A DNA stretch of 64,000 nucleotides, from contig RDOB01000003.1 of NCBI GenBank assembly GCA_011364965.1, positions 160,001 to 224,000 of the forward strand, written 5' to 3'. This DNA is from Candidatus Heimdallarchaeota archaeon (GTDB taxonomy: Archaea > Asgardarchaeota > Heimdallarchaeia > Hodarchaeales > Hodarchaeaceae). Below are positions 9,092-46,360 of the stretch, piece by piece. Both the position numbers and the translations under genes were made by a program. Numbering within the stretch: the stretch's first letter is position 1; the number at the start of each line of letters is the position of its first letter. Under the pieces are notes generated by a model. The model was not told the DNA's origin and ran no database searches. It saw only the letters and a program-made list of their open reading frames with translations.

Positions 9092-10098
9092 ATCCCAGCA
9101 ATTATCTTAACTTTTTCCTCTTGCTCTTTTATCCATTTCTCATCTACATTTGGAGACCCAAACCATTTCCAAAATGATCCCACAACTGGAGGATCAAGTT
9201 TGACATCCAATCTAGGATTTTGAGCTACTAAGAAAAATGCTTGCCATAATTCTCCAACAGCAGTTTGGTATAGACGCTTAATTATTTTATCATCTGCTTG
9301 AGCCTTTAATGCTTTGGAATATTGATTTAATCTTTTCTCTGATTCATTTATAGATACAAATGCCGTTAAAATCCACATTTCCCTCTCTGTTTTCACATTT
9401 TTTCTATAAAGATGTTCTGCTAATAATTCTAACTCTTTTCTTGCATTGATTAGCTTTTCGTAATTAAAAGAAGGAATTTGTATTAAATTGGCAAAAAATT
9501 GAAAGAGTTTTATATCTAATTGGTTTAATGAGTCCAATAGGAGAGAAGCAGGACCAATATCAAAATCATTTTTTTCCATTAAAGGAATACATATAGCCTC
9601 TTCGGCTGCTTTTATCAACCAGATGTAGGCGTCTGCTAACATATCCTCTTGAATTCGATTATTCATTCTACTAAGTAAAACCTGTGTTGTTTGACGTTTC
9701 AACTCAATCACTTCAGATTGCCACTTGATCTGAGGAGCTAGTTGAACCCATTCTTTTAAACGACCTCGAGGGTCGTAGATAATGTCAGAATTGCGTAAAA
9801 GTCTTATCACTGTCGCAATTTGCCAATAAGGTACGCTTTTCCTTCCCTCAAGAACATCTGTAAAAAATGATGGAGGAGCAAATGTTAATTTTATTTCATA
9901 TTCATCACTTTCTGATAGATCAGTTACCCTAGTTTCTTTTAAATCCCTTACACCCTCTCTCACTGCCCAAAGGTTGACTGTTGATTCTAGTTCTTGAAAC
10001 TCATCATGAATAAGCAGTCGCCCGATTTCTTGGTGTTGTGCCTCAATTCTCCCCAATAGAGTTGTTATGATGCGATCTAGAGCGATATTATCGATCAA
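9088..10098 (-). CDS. Hypothetical protein, possibly a degenerate nucleotidyltransferase fold plus helical (HEPN-like) domain
   Basis: GGAGGT SD + TTG; IIYDPRGRL motif typical of the NTase C-terminal strand, followed by an all-helical region. Confidence 0.6.
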   Translation of the reverse strand: MIDNIALDRIITTLLGRIEAQHQEIGRLLIHDEFQELESTVNLWAVREGVRDLKETRVTDLSESDEYEIKLTFAPPSFFTDVLEGRKSVPYWQIATVIRLLRNSDIIYDPRGRLKEWVQLAPQIKWQSEVIELKRQTTQVLLSRMNNRIQEDMLADAYIWLIKAAEEAICIPLMEKNDFDIGPASLLLDSLNQLDIKLFQFFANLIQIPSFNYEKLINARKELELLAEHLYRKNVKTEREMWILTAFVSINESEKRLNQYSKALKAQADDKIIKRLYQTAVGELWQAFFLVAQNPRLDVKLDPPVVGSFWKWFGSPNVDEKWIKEQEEKVKIIAGI

Positions 10099-10265
10099 AA
10101 AGATACCTCCTTTTTATTTTATTTCTATTGAACTTCTGATGATATCATTAAAATTATCTTTGTTTTTATAAAATATGAGCTTATAGAGAATTCGGAAAAA
10201 AGGGGGATAATGATTTTTAATAAATTATTATAGCTGTATTCTTGAAGAAAAAGTAGGACTCTACA

Positions 10266-35287: not shown

Positions 35288-36355
35288 ATGAGTAGGAATT
35301 CTCGTAAAAAATCCCCAAATAAGACAATTACTGAAATTGATTCGACTCTAAAAGAGCCGTTAGATATTGTTAGAGATGTAAAGACTGATACGAGACTGGT
35401 TAAACTCCAAAAGATGGTCGGACGTACGACTTTCACCGAATCCAGAAATCTAGCTACATTAATCCCCTGTGAACGATTATACTTAAAATTTGAAGGAAAT
35501 AATCCAACTGGAACCCAAAAGGATCGTATAGCGGTAGCTCTTGCTAACAGCTGTGCTAAACTTCCATATGGAGGAATTACAACTGCTTCATGTGGCAATT
35601 TCGGAGCTGCAATCGCATATGCCTCGAATTATTATCGCATTCCCGAGATTCACATTTTTATCCCTCGAAATTATCATGTTCCCAAAAGTAGATTGAAGAT
35701 TATCAATGATAGTAATGCAATTATCCACTTGGTAGATGGAACTTACGAAGAAGCGGTGATATTATCCTCTACCATGGCACGAGAGAACAATTGGTTTGAT
35801 GCAAATCCAGGAATGAACGGTACATCGGAAATAAGTATTAACGCTTATGCTGAAATAGCTTTTGAGATAATTAGTGACTTACGTCGGGCACCTGATTATG
35901 TTCTATGTCCAGTTGGAAATGGTACCACTATTGCAGGCATTCATCTTGGATTCAAGAAACTTTTTGATTCTAAAAGAATTCCAAAACTCCCTAAAATGGT
36001 TGCATGTAGCACTAGACGTGGAAATCCAATAGTAAAATCGTATAAAATGAAAAGTCGAATTATAAAAGACCTGACACCACAAGACATTGTAGAGACCAAA
36101 ATTAACGAACCTCTCACCAATTGGCATTCGTTTGATGGACAAGAGGCTTTAGATGCTTTATATGAATCCGGAGGTTTCGCTGAAACTGCTAGTGAAACAA
36201 AGATGCTTGAATTTACTCGTAGTCTTAGAATTGAAGAAGGATTGAATGTACATCCCGCTTCTGCTTGTACACTTGCGGTATTAGCTAAAACCACTAGTAA
36301 TAATGTAATGCTGAAAGGTACATTTATATGCATCCTAACTTCAAGATATACTTGA
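35288..36355 (+). CDS. Fold-type II PLP enzyme (threonine synthase-like)
   Basis: LYLKFEGNNPTGTQKDR, ASCGNFGAAIA, PVGNGTT, EGL…PASA. Confidence 0.9.
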   Translation: MSRNSRKKSPNKTITEIDSTLKEPLDIVRDVKTDTRLVKLQKMVGRTTFTESRNLATLIPCERLYLKFEGNNPTGTQKDRIAVALANSCAKLPYGGITTASCGNFGAAIAYASNYYRIPEIHIFIPRNYHVPKSRLKIINDSNAIIHLVDGTYEEAVILSSTMARENNWFDANPGMNGTSEISINAYAEIAFEIISDLRRAPDYVLCPVGNGTTIAGIHLGFKKLFDSKRIPKLPKMVACSTRRGNPIVKSYKMKSRIIKDLTPQDIVETKINEPLTNWHSFDGQEALDALYESGGFAETASETKMLEFTRSLRIEEGLNVHPASACTLAVLAKTTSNNVMLKGTFICILTSRYT

Positions 36356-36456
36356 AATCTCGAATCAAAGACAGTAATTCTTTCCTTTAACTGTCTAATA
36401 AACAAATAATTGGAAAGAATCTCTCAGTTTTTACTCTACTTCATTAACAAAGAAAA

Positions 36457-37602
36457 TCAATTAAACCTAAATTCCTTTTTCTTTACAGTAATTTTTTCTA
36501 TTCTCTCAAGATCCAGTTCAATCCCAAGTCCTACGCTATTTTGAGGAACATTAACCATCCCATTTATAGACTGAATTGGAGGATCAATAATATCTTGTAA
36601 AAATAATGTGTCGCTACCACTAGAATCACTAGGATAATTGTATTCATCTTGTGCCTCTAAAAATAAGTTAACCATTCCACCAATACCAGTTTCGAGCATA
36701 CCTCCTCCCCAGCAACCAATTTGATTTTCAGAACAAAATTTGGCAATCTTTACTGCATCTGCTATCCCACCAACTCGGGTTACTTTAATATTAATACATT
36801 GACATGATTTTATATGATATGCCCGTTTTGTGTCAGCGAATGATGTGATCGATTCATCTAAGCATATTGGTGTCTTTAATTCCTTTTGTAATCTACTATG
36901 ATTCACGAGATCATTAAAGGCAAGTGGTTGCTCTATCATCATCAAATTGAATTGGTCTAATTTTTTAAGGTGATTCATATCTTCTATAGTATATCCACCA
37001 TTTGCGTCAACCATTAAAGGTAAATTATCACCATATTCTTTTCTTAATGCTTCTAGAGGTATAGTATCCCAGCTATATGGCTTAATTTTAATTTTAATTC
37101 TTTTATAACCAGCATTCATTGAATCCGTAACTTCTTCAAATAATTGATTTATATCGTTGTTATTTGGAATTCCCAAACTGATTCCCACAGGAACACTCGT
37201 TCTTTTACTTCCAATAAGCTTCCCCAAAGAACAATTTTGCTGTTCGGCCTTTAATACCCAATAAGCCATTCCAAATCCACCTTTAGTGATGGGATGGCCA
37301 CGAATAGGATGAAAAATTTGTTGAAATTTAATAGGATCGGTTAATTCTCTGCTTTTTACCTTTTTTTTTAGTAAAGGTAACATAAAATCATTTAAAATAT
37401 GCCATCCTGTCATAGTTGTTTCATAACAATAAGAAGGATCATATGTTAATGGTATTTCTCCCCATCCAGATAAGCCTTCCTCATCGATAAGCTCCACTAA
37501 AATAGATTCATTATGAGTTTGTACGCCAAAACTCATATAAAATGGTTCAATTAAAGGTAAACGTACCTCACGTAAAATGACCTTGTTTAACATCAATACC
37601 AC
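36457..37602 (-). CDS. Enolase-superfamily OSBS / N-succinylamino-acid racemase (NSAR-type MenC)
   Basis: YCYET, KIKIKP, MVDANG, EQPL, CLDES, NIK..RVGG, GGMLETGIG; no other men genes in the window. Confidence 0.88.
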   Translation of the reverse strand: MVLMLNKVILREVRLPLIEPFYMSFGVQTHNESILVELIDEEGLSGWGEIPLTYDPSYCYETTMTGWHILNDFMLPLLKKKVKSRELTDPIKFQQIFHPIRGHPITKGGFGMAYWVLKAEQQNCSLGKLIGSKRTSVPVGISLGIPNNNDINQLFEEVTDSMNAGYKRIKIKIKPYSWDTIPLEALRKEYGDNLPLMVDANGGYTIEDMNHLKKLDQFNLMMIEQPLAFNDLVNHSRLQKELKTPICLDESITSFADTKRAYHIKSCQCINIKVTRVGGIADAVKIAKFCSENQIGCWGGGMLETGIGGMVNLFLEAQDEYNYPSDSSGSDTLFLQDIIDPPIQSINGMVNVPQNSVGLGIELDLERIEKITVKKKEFRFN

Positions 37603-37678
37603 AACTTACGAATAGTAAATAATTTTAAAAAGTTTTAGATTTCTTTCTAAATAGATAAACATAACTGGGCAGATTATT

Positions 37679-38734
37679 TTGGAAAACTATTTAGATTCTA
37701 AGAAATTTAAGGGCACAATTTTGGCGAAAAAAAATGATGAAATAGTTTTTGCTCGAGCAACAGGTTTTGCTAACTTATCTTTTCATGTTCCAAACAACAT
37801 GGAAACTATATATGGTATTGCTTCTATTGGGAAGTTACTCACCGCTATAGGTATTTTATTTTTATTAAAAGAAAAAAATATGAGAACAACTGACGCCATA
37901 TATCCATATTTAGAGATGCTTGATGCTGATATACCGAAACCATTAACTTTTCACCATTTACTGACACATACAAGTGGAGTCGAACGTTATTACACAATCG
38001 ATCCATATTTCCACGACCAGACATCTGGGAACCAAGATCAATGGAAAACATTCTGGAAAAAACACCCTAATTTCTTATTACAAACACCAATTGATTATCT
38101 CCCTTACTTAAATGATGTAGATTTCTTTTATCCAATTGGTGAGACTTTTTACTATACCAATACATCTTATATTTTACTTGGTATTCTAATTCAAGTCCTA
38201 AGTGGGCAAACATATAGTGAATATGTAACACACCGAGTAATAAAGAGGCTTAAATTAGAAAGAACCTTGTTTTTGGCTTTTGATGAAGTATATGAAAATG
38301 TTGCAGAAGGATATACACCCTTTTATCATCAAGGGATTATTAAAGGGTGGAAAAAGAACATTTATCGATTACCTATTGTTGGTTCGGCAGATGGTGGGAT
38401 TTTTAGTAATGTTTATGATTTAGATAAATTAATCAGTGAACTAAGAAATAAAAATGGCATACTATCTGATATTACCTATGATATTCTCCATCCCCACGTT
38501 CTAATGAAAAATGAGGAATCATGGAAATCCTTTTATGGTTATGGAATTACTATGATGTATCATGAAGGGGAGCTCTTTCGATATGGATTAGCAGGAGGGG
38601 ATTTTGGAGTGGCTGCTGGAGCTTATTATTACCCTAAAGAGCAATTATCTATAATTATATTATCTAATTATAATACGAGTGATGATAATTGGATGTTTAA
38701 CAAGGAATTTCATATGCAGTTCTTAGATCTTTAG
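37679..38734 (+). CDS. Serine hydrolase, beta-lactamase class C / D-peptidase family
   Basis: ASIGK (SxxK), LLTHTSG, YYTN (YxN), ADGG; the usual H(T/G)G triad reads LAG; no signal peptide. Confidence 0.88.
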   Translation: MENYLDSKKFKGTILAKKNDEIVFARATGFANLSFHVPNNMETIYGIASIGKLLTAIGILFLLKEKNMRTTDAIYPYLEMLDADIPKPLTFHHLLTHTSGVERYYTIDPYFHDQTSGNQDQWKTFWKKHPNFLLQTPIDYLPYLNDVDFFYPIGETFYYTNTSYILLGILIQVLSGQTYSEYVTHRVIKRLKLERTLFLAFDEVYENVAEGYTPFYHQGIIKGWKKNIYRLPIVGSADGGIFSNVYDLDKLISELRNKNGILSDITYDILHPHVLMKNEESWKSFYGYGITMMYHEGELFRYGLAGGDFGVAAGAYYYPKEQLSIIILSNYNTSDDNWMFNKEFHMQFLDL

Positions 38735-39252
38735 AATCGACATTCCATTGTAATATCCCCTTTTTCATCTTCATTGATAACCTTAAATCCAAATTTCTCG
38801 TAATAGGTTTTCAGTAATATCCCACGTTCTGTAGATAATTCAGTATCCAATTTAATCCCCGTAAATCCATTCATTTTTGTCCAATTAATAAGATATTTCA
38901 TAATCGAGGCACCAATCCCTTTTTTAGCAATGATTGTAGCGATTGTATCAAGGTAGAATAGATTAGAGTCACTATTAGGTTCTCTATAACCTAGCAGAAC
39001 CGCAATAGGATCTCTTCCCTTTATAACAAAAAAAAATAATCTTTTTGAATATTGAAACCTAGTTTGAAGCTCTTCTTTTGTATAGCGTAAATCCTCTCTG
39101 AAATCAGCTCTCTCAATGTTAAAATACCAGTTCATAAATTTCTTTGTCAAACGATCGGGAAAAATTAGTTTCATTGGAGTTTGTAGCTTTTCCTGCAGCT
39201 CTATTTCTAAATTCTTCCAATAAGAAGGATTAATGTTTGTCATCTTGATCAT
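38731..39252 (-). CDS. GNAT-family acyltransferase
   Basis: FYLDTIA…KKGIGASIM (motif A), YYEKFGF. Confidence 0.88.
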   Translation of the reverse strand: MIKMTNINPSYWKNLEIELQEKLQTPMKLIFPDRLTKKFMNWYFNIERADFREDLRYTKEELQTRFQYSKRLFFFVIKGRDPIAVLLGYREPNSDSNLFYLDTIATIIAKKGIGASIMKYLINWTKMNGFTGIKLDTELSTERGILLKTYYEKFGFKVINEDEKGDITMECRF

Positions 39253-39320
39253 TTAAATAAGATTATTTTAAAAAATTCATATAAAACCATATTAAATTGA
39301 AATCTGAATTTAAAGGATTA

Positions 39321-40316
39321 TCAGATTTCTAGTTTGTATCTTTTACAAGCGGATTTTATTAATCGTAAAATTAAATCATTATAAGGATAACCACTTTTAA
39401 TAGCCATATAAGGATAAAATGAGAAATCTTTATTTTCTAAGTCAAAATCCATTCCAGGCAATGGATTTATTTCAAGAGTATAAATCTGGTTATTTTTATC
39501 CATCCGAAAATCAATTCTAGCGAAATCTTTTATATCTAGAACTTTACAAATATTCAGAGATGTGTCAACAAGTTGCATAGATAACTTATCTGTAATATTC
39601 GCTGGACAAATGTAGTGATCTAGATCATCGTATGTAGTTTTAGCGCGCTGACCAAAAACTCCACCAACTTCTGAAGGTAATTGAGAAAAGTCAATTTCCA
39701 AAATAGAGAGAACCTCAAATTCTTCATTAATTCCCCCAATTACACCAACACTAAATTCTCTTCCTTGGATAAATTCTTCGACTAATATTGGTTGTCGATA
39801 AGTTGCAAACATCTCATTTAGTTTTGTTGTAAGTTGTTGATTATTGTGTACTACATTGTCTTCATTAATTCCTACCGAAGATCCCTCTTCATTTGGCTTT
39901 AGAATAACTGGATTAATCATTTTATAATTTTTAAGATCATCTAAAGTCTTAACGGTAAAGAAATGTGGAGTAGGAATCCCGTGATAAGAAAGTATTTTTT
40001 TTGTCCAGGCTTTGTTTAAACATACTGCCGTTGTTAATACATTTGATCCAATATATGGAATATTAAGCATTTCAAGCATTGCGGGGACATGAGATTCACG
40101 ACTGTCTCCACGTAAACCCTCAGATCTATTAAACACCAGATCGGGTTTAGCTAGTTGTAGATTTGCTACAAAATCTTCATCAGCTTCTATAAAAGAATAT
40201 TCATGACCATTTTTCTCAATCGCATTCCTTATCAATTCAATTGTATGTGGTGGATCATATTCAACTTGAAATTCAGACTCATCCAGTCGGGTATTCACAC
40301 ATAAAGCAATTTTCAT
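39321..40316 (-). CDS. D-Ala-D-Ala ligase-like ATP-grasp ligase
   Basis: FNRSEG..G..RESHVP..LE.LNIPYIGS, KP..EGSSVGI, EEFI.GREF, ARIDFR, LEINPLPG. Confidence 0.9.
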   Translation of the reverse strand: MKIALCVNTRLDESEFQVEYDPPHTIELIRNAIEKNGHEYSFIEADEDFVANLQLAKPDLVFNRSEGLRGDSRESHVPAMLEMLNIPYIGSNVLTTAVCLNKAWTKKILSYHGIPTPHFFTVKTLDDLKNYKMINPVILKPNEEGSSVGINEDNVVHNNQQLTTKLNEMFATYRQPILVEEFIQGREFSVGVIGGINEEFEVLSILEIDFSQLPSEVGGVFGQRAKTTYDDLDHYICPANITDKLSMQLVDTSLNICKVLDIKDFARIDFRMDKNNQIYTLEINPLPGMDFDLENKDFSFYPYMAIKSGYPYNDLILRLIKSACKRYKLEI

Positions 40317-40356
40317 TTTGTAACGCTCAATTTTATTATAGTTTTATAATTTATCT

Positions 40357-41730
40357 CTACATTTCAAATAAATTAATTTCTTCACGGAATATTGACATTA
40401 ATTCATTTTTGTACTCTTTAGGAACCGAGATGCTATCATAGATCTTGATAAAAGTATTAAATAATTCATTTTCACGATCTTTCGCTTCTTGATATAATTT
40501 ACTCTCTTTAAATTCCATAACCAAAGGTGAATTATTTCCCCTTTTAGCTGCTAGATAGAAATTAAAAAGCTGTTCATCGCGGCCTAGTCCTGTATTTGCA
40601 TAGGTTAAGGAGGAACTACCTCCAAATAAAGTAAAAAGGTTCTTATTTTGCTTAGAAAGCATATTATGTGTCAATCCAATAGCTTTCGGATCCATACCTC
40701 CTGCAATAGAAAGAAGAAACATCTTTGCACAAACTGAACATTCATGACACCATCTATATTCTTTTCCTGCTTCTGTACTTGTAAAACAACTCATCTGATA
40801 ATCAGCATATTGTGAATAACGTCTAATAAGTATTCGTTGAATAAAAATGTCCATCAGTGGTTCAATTAGACTACCTGTTCGAACTGTTCGGCCTGTAAAT
40901 AATTGAGTGATTTGATCAATATGAGAAGTCCATACATGTGTTTGATCATAACAGGGATATATCCTCCATTTCCCCTCTTCATCAAAATATGTAGCTGCAG
41001 TTGATTGCTCATTCCCGAAAAGAATGTACTTACCTTTAAATGCATAAGCAAATGGGATCAAAGATAACGCATATTCAGTGTTTTGAAGACCCCAGCCAAA
41101 TTCGGACTCAGGGAGACCAAGAAACGTGTAATTCCGTAATTTTCCTGTCTCATGTATTAAAATACTTAATTCTTTATTGAATTCCTTTTGAAATCTTTCT
41201 CCTAAAAGAGTTTTATGTTTTTGTTCATATTTGAGACTATCTTCAACGATATAAATCATCTTTGGATCTAATCCGAGTTCTTCTGCTAAAGCAAATGTTA
41301 GAAGTGAATCTTTCCCAAAACTCATAGATACCAAAGCTCTATAACCATCTTCAACAGGATAATGACCTGGATATAATATATCAGACTCCTTATAAATGAA
41401 ATCTAATGTTAAGAATTTTCGTACCACTTCATCCGTATTCGTTCCATCTACCTCAGTATTAGAGGGGATGTCGAAAATAAAATTTTGGAAAAGATATGGT
41501 TCTAATATTGGACGAGATGTTGAAAATTTTATTCCTGAAACTCCTGGCAATACCATGGGTAAGTGCATTGTTGCAATTAGTGCAAGATTGTCCTTGAAGG
41601 CATTTTTTACAGATTTAGGAACAGAAGACCAAACATTTTGAGGGTATTGTGTTGAAAATTCATTATTATTAAAAAACAAGCTTAATCCAGTATCGTTAAG
41701 TTTTACATCAATTTCTATAATATTTTTCAT
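40357..41730 (-). CDS. MurL-like PP-loop (adenine nucleotide alpha-hydrolase) enzyme, putative ATP-dependent peptide epimerase
   Basis: SMSFGKDSL PP-loop, GNEQS, SCF…WCHECSVC..MFL resemble the MurL order GGKDS / SNE.SA / SCN / WCG.C.KC. Confidence 0.7.
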   Translation of the reverse strand: MKNIIEIDVKLNDTGLSLFFNNNEFSTQYPQNVWSSVPKSVKNAFKDNLALIATMHLPMVLPGVSGIKFSTSRPILEPYLFQNFIFDIPSNTEVDGTNTDEVVRKFLTLDFIYKESDILYPGHYPVEDGYRALVSMSFGKDSLLTFALAEELGLDPKMIYIVEDSLKYEQKHKTLLGERFQKEFNKELSILIHETGKLRNYTFLGLPESEFGWGLQNTEYALSLIPFAYAFKGKYILFGNEQSTAATYFDEEGKWRIYPCYDQTHVWTSHIDQITQLFTGRTVRTGSLIEPLMDIFIQRILIRRYSQYADYQMSCFTSTEAGKEYRWCHECSVCAKMFLLSIAGGMDPKAIGLTHNMLSKQNKNLFTLFGGSSSLTYANTGLGRDEQLFNFYLAAKRGNNSPLVMEFKESKLYQEAKDRENELFNTFIKIYDSISVPKEYKNELMSIFREEINLFEM

Positions 41731-41788
41731 CGCAGGATACCAAGTACTTGGTGAATCAATGAATAGGGATTAGTAGACAGAACTAAAA

Positions 41789-42703
41789 TTATCCTTTATA
41801 CCTCTTTGCCATCTCAATTATATGGCTTACCCTCCAATCTTCAAAATGAAACCCTTCACCCCCAGTAACTGTATCCGTGGAAGTTACATCTGGGAATCTT
41901 TCTTTAAGCTCCTCTTCTATATTTCTAATCATTTTTATGTTTGGAGCAAAGAAGCTTAAAATAACTACGGGCTTTTCCACAACTATCCATCCAACCCAAA
42001 AGTTCTCAGTGAAAGCTCGCATCGAATTTTGAAAAAATTCTATCTTATTCGATTCCAGTTTCAACGTGCAGAAGATTGTGAATATAATTAATTCTTCGGA
42101 TGAACCAGGAGACAATATTGTCGAGAAATAAATGAGCTCTGTTCTAGAAAGACGATCCAGTCTTTTCTTCAATGTTCGAGTTGAAATTTGAGTTCGTTCT
42201 GAAAGGGTTTGTAATGGCATTCTACCATTATTTCTTAGTTCAGTAATTATTTTATAATCTGCAGGAGCGATTTCAGGTTTATCGCTTATTGGTTTTGATA
42301 ATAACAAGAAAATTTCAACTTTCTCTACATATGAAATAGACTTTAGCCAATTCTCAAGCTCTATAACTTCTGAGCTTGATTTATATGTAAAAACAGCGAT
42401 TAGTTTATTCCCGATCCCCACACCAACTGTGAAAACTAGCTCATGGTTACCAATAATATCCACTACTTCTTCTAAGCGTTCTGCCGCATTAGAAACGTTG
42501 ATTCGCGCAAGTCCAGTTTCTTCGCCTAGAATTCCAAAGCTCAATTCACATGAATATCCTTTGATAACACCCTCTTTTTCCAATTTATTAACGCGCTTTT
42601 TTACAGCATTGAGACTCAATTTTACATTTTTGGCAACAGTAGAAAAAGGCATTCGGCTACTTGAATGAAGTAATTTTATAATTTCAAGATCCTTTGAGTC
42701 CAT
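41789..42703 (-). CDS. Tandem-duplicated Lrp/AsnC-family regulator
   Basis: MDSKDLEII..L….R.PF…V.KRV..LEKEGVIKGY; second D.KII.EL..NGR.P HTH. Confidence 0.9.
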   Translation of the reverse strand: MDSKDLEIIKLLHSSSRMPFSTVAKNVKLSLNAVKKRVNKLEKEGVIKGYSCELSFGILGEETGLARINVSNAAERLEEVVDIIGNHELVFTVGVGIGNKLIAVFTYKSSSEVIELENWLKSISYVEKVEIFLLLSKPISDKPEIAPADYKIITELRNNGRMPLQTLSERTQISTRTLKKRLDRLSRTELIYFSTILSPGSSEELIIFTIFCTLKLESNKIEFFQNSMRAFTENFWVGWIVVEKPVVILSFFAPNIKMIRNIEEELKERFPDVTSTDTVTGGEGFHFEDWRVSHIIEMAKRYKG

Positions 42704-43216: not shown

Positions 43217-43290
43217 CAAAGAGTTATTGACTGCGATTGACCAAAGTCCTAAAATTAAATAGTCCTCCCCATAGATTGGTGACAATTAAA

Positions 43291-44472
43291 GTGAATAATA
43301 CTTATAATTTTGATCAAGTAATCGATCGTCGAAAAACAGATTCAATTAAATGGAATGATGAATTTCTAAAAGAATATTTCAAAGGAGAAAACCTTCTTCC
43401 ATTATGGGTTGCAGATATGGACTTTCGGGCTCCTCAACCAGTAATTGATGCTCTTGTGGCACGAGCAAAACATGGAATTTTTGGGTATGGAACTGCAGGT
43501 TGGCCTGAGTATTTTGAAAGTGTAATTTCATGGTTTTCTAGACGATATAACTGGAACATCAAAAAGGATTGGTTTGTTCATGCCCCTGGAATTGTTCCAG
43601 CGTGTTATTATATAATTCAGCGATTCAGCCATCCGGGGGATAAGATTATCATTCAAAATCCTGTGTATTATCCCTTTGCATCTGGAATCATATCAAACGG
43701 GAGAATTGTTGCCTCTAACGACTTGAAACTGGAAAATGGTAGATATACAATGGATTTTGAAGACTTGGAGAAGAAAGTTAAAGATCCACTTACAAAAATG
43801 ATAATTTTATGCAGTCCCCATAATCCTGTTGGGCGTGTGTGGATAAAAGAAGAATTAGAACGGTTGGGAGAAATTTGTTTTAGTAATGGAGTCTTAATAG
43901 TTTCAGATGAAATTCATTGTGATTTGACCTATCCCTCCATCAAACACACCATTTTTGCATCTATTTCGGAGGAACTCGCTCAAAATACCATCACATGCAC
44001 TGCAGGGAGTAAAACCTTTAATCTTGCAGGTTTGCATCATTCAAATGTCATAATTTCGAACTCTAAATTAAGAGAAGAATTTAAAACTCAATTAAGAATA
44101 AATGGCTTGATGACACCAAACATTTTTGGAACACACGCCTTACAAGCTGCGTATAGTAAATGTGAAGATTGGTTAGACGCTCTGATGGTATATTTACAAA
44201 AGAATTTAGAATTTTTAAAGAAGTTTTTAAGGAAGAACTTCCCACAAGTGAAAATTATTGAACCTGAGGGTACATATTTAGTTTGGATGGACTTCAGAGA
44301 ATTAAACCTATCAGGAAAAGATCTTCAATCCAAGTTAATTGAAGCCAAGGTTGCACTTGATCCAGGACACATTTTTGGATCTGGAGGAGAGGGATTCATG
44401 CGCATCAACATTGCTTGTCCCCAAAGTACTTTAGAGGAATCATTGAATCGAATAGTAAGGGCATTTATTTGA
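43291..44472 (+). CDS. MalY/PatB-family PLP cystathionine beta-lyase (start likely GTG 43291)
   Basis: YNFD..IDR..T.S.KW, PLWVADMDF, LCSPHNPVGRVW, SDEIHCDL, SKTFNLAG; GGTGA SD. Confidence 0.93.
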   Translation: MNNTYNFDQVIDRRKTDSIKWNDEFLKEYFKGENLLPLWVADMDFRAPQPVIDALVARAKHGIFGYGTAGWPEYFESVISWFSRRYNWNIKKDWFVHAPGIVPACYYIIQRFSHPGDKIIIQNPVYYPFASGIISNGRIVASNDLKLENGRYTMDFEDLEKKVKDPLTKMIILCSPHNPVGRVWIKEELERLGEICFSNGVLIVSDEIHCDLTYPSIKHTIFASISEELAQNTITCTAGSKTFNLAGLHHSNVIISNSKLREEFKTQLRINGLMTPNIFGTHALQAAYSKCEDWLDALMVYLQKNLEFLKKFLRKNFPQVKIIEPEGTYLVWMDFRELNLSGKDLQSKLIEAKVALDPGHIFGSGGEGFMRINIACPQSTLEESLNRIVRAFI

Positions 44473-44482
44473 TTAAAAGTGT

Positions 44483-46360
44483 TTATGCAAGTGGTAGGAC
44501 AACTTCAACCTTTGTGCCTATTTTTAGAATTTTATCTCGATATTCAATCAGATAATATCCTTGAGAAAATTCAACAGCTAAATTGAGCATCACATATCCT
44601 AGCCCAGTCCTTATATCGAGATTTTGAAGTGGATCTTGTAAAATTTCCCTCATTTCTTCCTGAATGCCCAAACCATTATCAGAGAATGATATATGTACAA
44701 AATTAGGTGTTCTTTCTTCAAGCTCAATAACAAGTTCCTTTTTAATGGTAGCATTATATATTAATGCATTCAACCCTATTTCAACAAATGAACTTTGTAA
44801 TATCGGATTATACCGCACCTTTATAGGTTTTGAGAGAGTATTTCTTAATATAATGTCTTTTTCCTCGTTCTCTTTAAGGATATAATCAATATTAATCTGT
44901 TTTACAACTTCTTTCATTAATGATTCAAGATCCATTAAATTCTCTTTGACTGAATCACTAGTTAAAAATCTTAATTCTCCTATTTGGTGTATAAGATGAC
45001 TTATTTTCTCAATTTTTTTATAGGTTGTATTCAAAAACTGAGGGTCTTTCTTTGATTCCTGCAATTCTATGGCAAAAAAATGCCCCTGTAGTGCATTTCT
45101 AAGATCATGACCAATGATATTGAACAAAATGTCAGCTCTACGCTTCTCTGAGAGAAGTTGTTCTATTGGAGGGGAATAACGCAAAACTGCAACCCCAAAG
45201 ATTCCAAACGCTGCAATAAACACGATAAGAATGAATACAATGAATATTAGCCCATTTGTTAATAAATATTGCCCGGCACTCTGTTCCCATATCTCTGCCA
45301 AGTCCTGAGCTATTTCTGCTATTTCAGCTTTCTCTACAACAATAGTTAGTATCATATTCGGATCTTTGATATGCTGGAAAACAATTAATTTTTCTTTGAT
45401 TTCACCATTTGTTGTCAAGAGCATCGCTGTGAAGTTCCCCTGCGGATTTTCAATAATATAGTCCAATTTATCAAGAAGATCCGTGTTATTAATGCTGGAG
45501 AGGTTTTCAGCCTGTATTAGTTCATCATATCCGCGATGAATAGAGGTGATATTAGATTTAACGAGGATATTTAGTGATGGGTCAATTAAGATAGCATAAC
45601 CACTATTTTTATACTCAATAGCAGAGATTCGTTCACTGATCGACTCAAATGATAGGTCAATGCCCAATACACCAAAAAAATCGGAATTATTGAAAAAAGG
45701 AATAGATAATGTAGCTACTAGCCGATTAGCTAAAGCATCTGTATATATAGACCAGAACGTTCCATTCTTTTCTTTCGCTCCAATATACCAAGGTCTTTGT
45801 CTTGAATCGAATTCTGAGCTTGGAGTAATCTCTGTGAGATTTACATAAGGAAAAAACCTGTTAACACCAACCTCTGTTCCTAAATACACCTGATAAACTG
45901 ATGGGGAGTTCACAAAGGAAGAAAAATAAATTCCTATAGATGAAAAGACAGATAATGTTTGATTAACTGTATTATTAAGAGAAACGAAACTAGGAATGAA
46001 TATGTCTCCGATTCCGACGTCCGAAGAGAGACCCCAAGCTCCTCCAGGGAATTGCTTTATTAAAGTCCATCGATCATCTTCTATAGGACTTAATAAGAGA
46101 TTTTGCACAAAACATCGTAGATTAAGAATTTCACTGTTATAGCTGGCAAAATAAGTCTCTAGAATTCCTGTTTCAGCATATACACGGTATTTCAATTCCG
46201 ATTGAGCAGCAGAGAATGCCTGATCTTTTGCGATCTCAGTAGCTTGATTCGAAGTTTGGTTGATTAAATGAAAACCAATTATTGTCGCAATAAGTAGAGG
46301 TATAATTGCCAATATTCCAAAGATGGCTATGATTCGTGGAGAGATCTTACGATAATTCAT
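44483..46360 (-). CDS. Membrane sensor histidine kinase with an extracellular dCache domain
   Basis: 2 TMs; FDSRQRPWY…YTDA…GVLGID Cache motifs; GHDLRN H-box; N-box, DNGLG and GLG boxes. Confidence 0.9.
   Translation of the reverse strand: MNYRKISPRIIAIFGILAIIPLLIATIIGFHLINQTSNQATEIAKDQAFSAAQSELKYRVYAETGILETYFASYNSEILNLRCFVQNLLLSPIEDDRWTLIKQFPGGAWGLSSDVGIGDIFIPSFVSLNNTVNQTLSVFSSIGIYFSSFVNSPSVYQVYLGTEVGVNRFFPYVNLTEITPSSEFDSRQRPWYIGAKEKNGTFWSIYTDALANRLVATLSIPFFNNSDFFGVLGIDLSFESISERISAIEYKNSGYAILIDPSLNILVKSNITSIHRGYDELIQAENLSSINNTDLLDKLDYIIENPQGNFTAMLLTTNGEIKEKLIVFQHIKDPNMILTIVVEKAEIAEIAQDLAEIWEQSAGQYLLTNGLIFIVFILIVFIAAFGIFGVAVLRYSPPIEQLLSEKRRADILFNIIGHDLRNALQGHFFAIELQESKKDPQFLNTTYKKIEKISHLIHQIGELRFLTSDSVKENLMDLESLMKEVVKQINIDYILKENEEKDIILRNTLSKPIKVRYNPILQSSFVEIGLNALIYNATIKKELVIELEERTPNFVHISFSDNGLGIQEEMREILQDPLQNLDIRTGLGYVMLNLAVEFSQGYYLIEYRDKILKIGTKVEVVLPLA

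Follow-up and report, generated by a model that had tools for sequence, protein, structure and literature searches.

An accessory four-gene cassette with a MurL-like PP-loop protein in a Heimdallarchaeota contig as a candidate route to small modified amino-acid conjugates

The locus described here raises the question of what an archaeon would make with relatives of peptidoglycan enzymes. In the 64,000-nucleotide (nt) window analysed (contig RDOB01000003.1 of a Candidatus Heimdallarchaeota archaeon, with all positions counted from the window start), a MurL-like PP-loop protein is encoded in a closely spaced run with a Ddl-family ATP-grasp ligase and a GNAT acyltransferase. The source genome is 87% complete, which limits all the genome-wide negatives given in this study; within that limit no Mur ligase domain (Mur_ligase_M) was found anywhere in it, which extends to the whole genome the lack of mur genes reported in a preliminary description of this DNA. 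Our analysis has shown that the region consists of two separable units. Unit A (35288-36355 and 38731-41730) is a four-gene cassette holding the MurL-like PP-loop, Ddl-like ATP-grasp, GNAT and threonine-synthase-like pyridoxal phosphate (PLP) enzyme genes, and unit B (36457-38734) is a hydrolase/racemase-like pair which lies between the GNAT and PLP genes in the window. The reading which we favour, by a modest degree, is that unit A is a laterally spread accessory cassette for the ribosome-independent synthesis of a small modified amino-acid conjugate and that unit B is a separate pair, probably serving turnover or salvage. The product of unit A is most likely N-acetylated and dipeptide-like. 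The seven genes of the region are as follows.

41789..42703, minus strand: tandem (doubled) Lrp/AsnC-type regulator, 304 amino acids (aa), with two HTH_24/HTH_AsnC stretches
40357..41730, minus strand: MurL-like PP-loop (QueC-fold) protein, 457 aa, with no Pfam match and a weak match to the MurL model NF041275
39321..40316, minus strand: Ddl-family ATP-grasp ligase, 331 aa (PF07478 Dala_Dala_lig_C, E 2.7e-36)
38731..39252, minus strand: GNAT acyltransferase, 173 aa, with weak Pfam GNAT matches
37679..38734, plus strand: S12-family (beta-lactamase-fold) serine hydrolase, 351 aa, cytoplasmic (PF00144, E 3.7e-33)
36457..37602, minus strand: MR_MLE enzyme of the o-succinylbenzoate synthase/N-succinylamino acid racemase (OSBS/NSAR) subfamily, 381 aa (TIGR01928, 286 bits against a cut-off of 200)
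35288..36355, plus strand: threonine-synthase-like fold-II PLP enzyme (PALP), 355 aa (NF004996, 332 bits against a cut-off of 266)

The open reading frame (ORF) calls, family matches and motif positions reproduced all seven genes with the coordinates, order and spacing of the preliminary description. On the minus-strand run the spacers measure 58 nt between the regulator and PP-loop genes, 40 nt between the PP-loop and ATP-grasp genes and 68 nt between the ATP-grasp and GNAT genes. The GNAT and hydrolase genes are convergent and overlap by 4 nt, the hydrolase and MR_MLE genes are divergent and 76 nt apart, and the MR_MLE and PLP genes are convergent and 101 nt apart.

The unity of the cassette is evident from its conservation, for which 55 loci with a close PP-loop homologue (from Asgard classes, Bathyarchaeia and Spirochaetia) and 26 more distant loci were compared. 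The ATP-grasp and GNAT genes were found directly downstream of the PP-loop gene in 50 of the 55 close loci, so the triad proposed earlier is indeed conserved in other genomes. All four cassette genes are present in 49 of these loci, the exceptions being mostly contig ends, and a set that recurs so often is far beyond chance. In 40 archaeal loci the PLP gene faces the other three in convergent orientation, and in nine loci it stands first in a co-directional operon (Spirochaetia, two Borrarchaeum and one metagenome-assembled genome (MAG) labelled 'Rickettsiales'). Beyond the four genes, no neighbour was conserved across lineages in the close loci. Since the PLP gene is present in 49 of the 55 and no other neighbour is conserved in this way, it is the fourth core member of the cassette, and not a gene merely abutting the set as had been described. 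Among the distant loci (DPANN, candidate phyla radiation (CPR)-like, Methanosarcinales and Brocadia) the PP-loop gene is paired with an ATP-grasp gene or a second PP-loop paralogue in 23 of 26, hence the pairing of a ligase with a MurL-like protein is a habit of the family, as in MurD2/MurL. An apparent PP-loop/ATP-grasp fusion ORF in one locus (L041) was rejected as artificial, produced by a stretch of N.

The cassette is an accessory one, found in 36 of 301 sampled Asgard genomes (~12%), with a concentration in one family (25 of 76), and in none of the 20 other genomes of the source genome's own genus. The PP-loop family itself is compact, with ~300 clusters at 50% identity matching among 1.8 billion proteins, and the nearest relatives of the present protein are 55-66% identical and occur across Asgard lineages and in Bathyarchaeia. 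This high identity, together with the patchy spread over Asgard archaea, Bathyarchaeia and Spirochaetia, suggests that anaerobes of sediments have exchanged the cassette laterally. No paper describing the four-gene cassette was found in the literature searched.

Some minor features of the compared loci may be recorded here. A tetratricopeptide-repeat protein of ~420-440 aa adjoins the PLP gene in 19 loci (e.g. L004:12176-13507), most of them labelled Thorarchaeota and a few Promethearchaeota or only 'archaeon', which makes it a lineage-specific neighbour of the cassette. In one Spirochaetia locus (L043:1688-2887) the PLP/PP-loop/ATP-grasp/GNAT operon is preceded, at a distance of a few kb, by M20 peptidase and DUF5058 genes; in NSAR pathways the L-deacylases are M20 enzymes. 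A few taxonomic labels are doubtful: L013, labelled 'Actinomycetota', carries a cassette of the Bathyarchaeia type and shares its sample with the Bathyarchaeota contigs L011 and L042, and among L047 and L067-L079 contigs labelled 'Gammaproteobacteria' or 'Enterobacteriaceae' carry PP-loop pairs like those of CPR-labelled loci.

The PP-loop protein, as judged from sequence profiles, is a true but distant homologue of MurL. The MurL-like order of motifs noted earlier was found in full, with SFGKDS at residues 137-142, GNEQS at 239-243, SCF at 314-316 and WCHECSVC (the WCxxCxxC pattern) at 327-334. The protein comprises an N-terminal domain (1-125), a core of PP-loop and Cys4 zinc ribbon (~130-348) and a C-terminal helical domain. 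Comparison of the PP-loop family with the MurL clade by hhalign gave a probability of 99.7% and an E-value of 6.5e-26 over residues 103-445 (~330 columns), and it is this profile-profile match which makes the kinship real though distant. The homology spans the PP-loop, the zinc ribbon with its Cys4 site and the C-terminal helical domain. Moreover, the MurL model NF041275 is weakly matched by 43 of 71 diverse members of the family (best E 3e-12), and neighbouring clusters in the Atlas are labelled 'MurL family', some of their members carrying the Pfam 38.1 domains MurL_N and MurL_epimerase_C.

The MurL clade used for this comparison was taken from a class of small CPR-like genomes, in which some contigs are labelled 'Gammaproteobacteria'; G001, a genome of this class with that NCBI label, resembles CPR in its size and its neighbours. 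A full-length gene of the clade (E <=1e-30) is present in 93 of 401 genomes of the class, the best scores against the MurL model being 360-397 bits. At the ten best loci (L100-L109; genomes G104, G235, G281 and others) a MurD-like gene adjoins the MurL-clade gene in all ten, and a MraY-like gene precedes in six. Neither a Mur ligase gene nor a peptidoglycan set is present at our locus, and the MraY/MurL/MurD-like order was not found there. About 15 of the clade's matches sit in open frames of 750-1090 aa, possibly MurL-MurD fusions, and the host genomes of the L100-L109 class are ~1 Mb in size and CPR-like despite some of their labels.

The fold of the protein leads to a second family. In the AlphaFold2 (AF2) model, which has a pLDDT of 96, the core (130-348) was found closest to QueC of B. 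subtilis (3bl5) and to Cap9 (9nto) of a cyclic-oligonucleotide-based antiphage signalling system (CBASS), with Z 14.3 and 175-191 residues aligned, against Z <=11 for other PP-loop enzymes, and Foldseek placed QatC (9y02) and QueC at the top ranks. The cysteines of the Cys4 zinc site (C315, C328, C331 and C334) are invariant in 90 sequences of the family. On the other hand, the Pfam QueC family (PF06508) gave no match for the protein at E 0.01 and matched only 7 of 90 relatives (best E 6.3e-5). A grouping with QueC, which the preliminary description had counted against its own proposal, is therefore seen at the level of fold and not at the level of sequence profiles, where the protein goes with MurL. 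No GATase or Asn_synthase Pfam domain was detected on it, phmmer found no match among PDB sequences, and the PDB sequence and fold searches returned no solved chain named MurL. QueC, Cap9 and QatC all adenylate a carboxylate. They share with the PP-loop protein the catalytic core including the Cys4 zinc site; unlike them, it has extra N- and C-terminal domains and its locus is without deazaguanine or defence genes. Taken together, the model and the alignments predict a carboxylate-adenylating enzyme which has the QueC fold and belongs to the MurL branch.

The remaining cassette proteins can be placed with similar care. The ATP-grasp protein is by its matches a member of the Ddl family and not a Ddl orthologue: it stays under every NCBIfam Ddl cut-off (186 bits against 243 and 163 against 246 with the best models), and no match to Dala_Dala_lig_N (PF01820), the N-terminal domain of Ddl, was found on it. 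Ddl chains in the PDB match it at E ~1e-23 and the equivalents of R255, D257, E270 and N272 are retained, while with two templates the alignment of the Ddl omega-loop (K215/Y216) comes out ambiguous. In the GNAT protein (AF2 pLDDT 92.6) the acyl-CoA motif is intact (GKGIG), and the top fold matches are the N-alpha-acetyltransferases Naa50, RimI and Ard1. The PLP enzyme, with the lysine motif NPTGTQKDR, is by sequence a paralogue of ThrC; a canonical ThrC is encoded elsewhere in the genome, and the cut-off of NF004996 was reached by none of 14 control (model) genomes. Phosphate-site residues of threonine synthase, sought in the PLP enzyme as a guide to its substrate, were not found in usable form.

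Unit B has a history of its own. Its hydrolase carries the motifs SIGK (SxxK) and YTN (YxN) and has no signal peptide, in agreement with the cytoplasmic enzyme first described, and its PF00144 score is 115 bits against a cut-off of 27. The PDB matches are 3tg9 (E 7.5e-51), Pab87 (2qmi, E 7.5e-30) and the alkaline D-peptidase 4y7p (E 2.5e-17), and the relation to the last two hints at a D-peptidase-like enzyme with D-stereospecific hydrolysis. Most S12 peptidases, the archaeal Pab87 among them, are D-stereospecific (PMC2651629); like Pab87 and the alkaline D-peptidase the present hydrolase combines PF00144 with the SxxK and YxN motifs, whereas it is without the C-terminal domain of Pab87 (351 aa against 447 aa). 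The MR_MLE enzyme matches 1wuf (E 7.5e-83) and the Amycolatopsis NSAR 1sja (E 1.1e-67). It keeps the catalytic positions of 1sja, namely KxK, the metal ligands D, E and D, the second K and the following R, and like the racemases of NSAR operons it passes the OSBS/NSAR model. In the genome the best match to MenD reaches 38.7 bits against a cut-off of 244, and that to MenB 156 bits against 343. With neither over its cut-off, no MenD or MenB partner was found for this MenC-like gene, whose membership in a complete menaquinone pathway the preliminary description had named as a ground for refuting its proposal, and a racemase role is more likely than OSBS. Unlike NSAR operons that convert D- to L-amino acids, the window holds neither an M20 L-desuccinylase nor a dedicated succinyltransferase; there is no M20 gene in the cluster and its sole GNAT belongs to the conserved cassette.

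The hydrolase and racemase-like genes had been described as parts of one general system with the triad, and this was not borne out, as both are absent from all 80 related loci. Racemase homologues in the same genus are just 40-44% identical. A protein search found the racemase clade in five other MAGs at 80-82% identity; these belong to one accession series and are labelled Odin, Hod, Thor, Promethearchaeota and Hermod. In all five the racemase gene is divergently paired with a hydrolase orthologue of 68-72% identity. Because the pair is intact in five MAGs and absent from the related loci, it is a rare two-gene unit of its own and not part of the general cassette system. Nevertheless, three of the six genomes known to carry it have it next to the cassette, and each layout is different. 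In a Thorarchaeota-labelled contig (L122) the hydrolase gene precedes the PP-loop gene on the same strand at a distance of 7 nt, and in L086 the pair is ~6.5 kb from the cassette. As the cassette occurs in only ~12% of Asgard genomes, chance is an unlikely cause of three juxtapositions in as many layouts, and this argues for a functional tie or at least co-mobility of units A and B. The borders of the island were sought with the flanking genes in same-genus genomes, where synteny was not conserved and the homologues lie 72 kb apart in G539. Neither the hydrolase/racemase pairing nor its placement beside a MurL-like cassette was found described in the literature searched.

The surroundings of the pair elsewhere vary. 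In the Odinarchaeota-labelled MAG (L123) it lies near an M55 D-aminopeptidase gene, and a few kb away two adjacent genes with major-vault-protein domains (Vault_3 and MVP_shoulder; L123:2651-5578) stand beside a flotillin/Band_7 gene. In L122 an Arf/Ras/Roc-type small GTPase gene (9616-10197) is ~750 nt from the racemase-like gene.

From the gene content, homology, fold, linkage, conservation and distribution described above, we infer substrates, an order of steps, a possible epimerisation and a link between the two units as follows. The ThrC-like PLP enzyme would supply or reshape one amino-acid building block, and the Ddl-family ATP-grasp enzyme would activate a carboxylate as an acyl-phosphate and form one amide bond. 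The MurL-like PP-loop enzyme would adenylate the free (C-terminal) carboxylate of this product, converting ATP to AMP and PPi. The acyl-adenylate may then be inverted at its alpha-carbon, for which MurL is the precedent, or be passed to ammonia or an amine, as in QueC and in the AsnO step of N-acetylglutaminylglutamine amide (NAGGN) synthesis (PMC8070244). The GNAT would cap (acetylate) the alpha-amine, and unit B, which has landed inside the cassette here, would probably turn over or salvage the product or related D- or N-acyl compounds.

For the chemistry of the PP-loop enzyme, epimerisation is given the largest share of our belief, one which nevertheless falls somewhat short of half; amidation or another acyl transfer takes a smaller though still substantial share, and the remainder goes to something else. 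The adjacent D-peptidase-like and N-acyl-racemase-like genes modestly shift these expectations towards a product that is N-acylated and has a D-centre. A bolder version of the scheme, in which the cassette would give archaea their first non-ribosomal route to an N-acetyl peptide with a D-residue, the L-residue being ligated and then inverted by adenylation, with unit B as its dedicated turnover arm, is offered tentatively and is on balance unlikely. The genome was found to contain one gene of the Asp/Glu racemase family elsewhere and no match to alanine racemase (PF01168).

Several results weigh against the scheme. The score of the PP-loop protein with NF041275 is only 20.4 bits (E 1.5e-4) against an equivalog cut-off of 700. 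The GGGKDS of the MurL-clade sample reads SFGKDS in our protein, the invariant Arg in the sample's SLLRPL is replaced by Glu (E290, in SLIEPL), and there is no Cys aligned to its invariant Cys-382; by these differences the epimerase chemistry may not be retained. The best solved structural relatives make amides or nitriles, with no epimerase among them, and the fold similarity of the GNAT is generic. As to unit B, it is missing from almost all cassette genomes: the 300 other Asgard genomes sampled, of which 35 have the cassette, yielded no member of the 80%-identity racemase clade. In three of the five MAGs no cassette is present in the sequence seen around the pair. The five MAGs come from one accession series, so that co-mobility could explain the adjacency of units A and B as well as function could. 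Further, the product, substrates and activities given above for the cassette genes are predicted ones. The overall interpretation of the preliminary description, a system for the synthesis and recycling of D-amino-acid peptides, is partly supported, its epimerase activity, D-residue and recycling role being matters of inference.

Among the closest known systems is MurD2/MurL of Xanthomonas oryzae, an alternative route to D-Glu in peptidoglycan synthesis in which MurL follows the ligase MurD2, consumes ATP with release of AMP and inverts the C-terminal residue that has just been added (PMC8788868, PMC5808125). In both systems the gene of an ATP-dependent ligase adjoins that of a homologous PP-loop/Cys4 enzyme. 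Whereas in MurD2/MurL this ligase is a Mur ligase, in the cassette it is a Ddl-type ATP-grasp and no UDP-MurNAc pathway was found in the genome; moreover, the cassette has a GNAT and a ThrC-like PLP enzyme as obligatory partners, and its hosts are archaea and Spirochaetia. To our knowledge MurL has so far been known only as a peptidoglycan enzyme, with its mechanism unexplained. Here a compact conserved cassette pairs a relative of MurL with a different ligase, in archaea in which no murein ligases were found. If the bolder version is true, post-ligation ATP-driven epimerisation would be a general strategy outside peptidoglycan. Should the cassette enzyme epimerise, the ATP-driven inversion of a C-terminal residue would prove to be in wider biochemical use, and a dedicated pathway to D-amino-acid peptides could be ascribed to archaea. 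The placement of unit B beside the cassette in this genome and two relatives serves as an independent hint on the product chemistry (N-acyl, D-centre). With only four genes and high-confidence folds, direct reconstitution in vitro is possible.

Among the rival explanations, the one which survives best, although we consider it unlikely, is that the PP-loop enzyme amidates in the manner of QueC or AsnO and does not epimerise, so that the cassette would make an all-L N-acetyl-dipeptide amide or a similar compatible solute. In NAGGN synthesis Ngg performs both the N-acetylation and the peptide-bond formation, and AsnO amidates the C-terminal residue (PMC8070244). The classes of enzyme are matched by the cassette, as it provides a GNAT, a peptide-bond-forming ligase and a PP-loop-superfamily enzyme predicted to act on the C-terminal residue of a dipeptide, and the product of the NAGGN route is a small N-acetyl dipeptide. 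The missing counterpart of Cys-382 would fit an amidating enzyme, as would the nearest solved folds, QueC and Cap9, which turn adenylated carboxylates into amides; asparagine-synthetase-like PP-loop enzymes also make a nitrile from the C-terminal carboxylate of peptides (PMC13060819). However, AsnO is of the asparagine-synthetase type and takes its amide nitrogen from glutamine, whereas the PP-loop protein carries no glutaminase or Asn_synthase domain. Acetylation and ligation, joined in Ngg, are on separate genes in the cassette, and there is no detectable sequence kinship between the two systems beyond the superfamily level. The span of the MurL homology over PP-loop, zinc ribbon and C-terminal helical domain and the poor Pfam QueC matches also speak against this route, as do the two D-chemistry genes repeatedly found beside the cassette. 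NAGGN synthesis proceeds without a PLP enzyme, and the ThrC-like enzyme is not obviously needed by an osmolyte route. Should amidation be correct after all, the cassette would represent a small-molecule route resembling that of NAGGN, which archaea of sediments have assembled from unrelated parts.

Another explanation, which we hold to be improbable, is that of a secreted antimetabolite or signalling dipeptide, made by the ligase, with the GNAT or the ThrC paralogue for self-protection and major facilitator superfamily (MFS) pumps for export. ATP-grasp dipeptide antibiotics such as bacilysin and tabtoxin follow this logic of ligase, exporter and acetyltransferase. The patchy and seemingly laterally spread distribution would agree with it, and MFS genes lie beside or near the cassette in L006, L053 and L086 (by Pfam or called genes) and in L018, L027 and L031 (by sequence clustering with the MFS gene of L006). 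In the window's cluster, however, no MFS gene is present, no warhead-building genes are conserved beyond the four, and a specialised-metabolite cluster would not be expected to show as much as 55-60% identity across phyla.

Still less credible is a catabolic role of the whole region, which would import and salvage environmental D-amino acids and D-peptides, such as bacterial wall debris, to give L-amino acids. In the NSAR family D-amino acids are turned into L-amino acids by way of N-acyl forms. The cluster is bordered by amino-acid genes (for a PatB C-S lyase and a dCache histidine kinase), and the M55 D-aminopeptidase gene near the pair in L123 would suit such a role. The resemblance of the hydrolase to Pab87 and the alkaline D-peptidase points the same way (PMC2651629). 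Against this, the two ATP-consuming enzymes that form or activate bonds (ATP-grasp and PP-loop) are hard to justify in catabolism, and in nearly all genomes the cassette occurs without the hydrolase/racemase pair. A cell-wall pathway (murein or pseudomurein-type) or a QueC-type nucleoside modification is unlikely in the extreme, for although the families resemble peptidoglycan enzymes (MurL, Ddl and penicillin-binding-protein-like) and the PP-loop core folds like QueC, no Mur ligase was found in the genome, the locus has no MraY- or MurD-type neighbour such as the MurL-clade loci have, the cassette is missing from 20 same-genus genomes, and there is no Pfam QueC match and no que or tgt gene among the conserved neighbours of the cassette.

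The tandem Lrp gene at 41789-42703 likely encodes a local regulator of unit A. Its helix-turn-helix (HTH) domains are at residues 1-48 and ~147-194, and its NCBIfam matches, of LysM/LrpA type, remain below cut-off. In several Thorarchaeota loci similar proteins of ~300 aa are encoded upstream of the cassette, at a distance of a few kb. In the window the Lrp gene is flanked, at 43237-46360, by genes for a PatB-family C-S lyase (TIGR04350, 473 bits) and a dCache-type sensor histidine kinase, and these flanks suggest an amino-acid-sensing neighbourhood.

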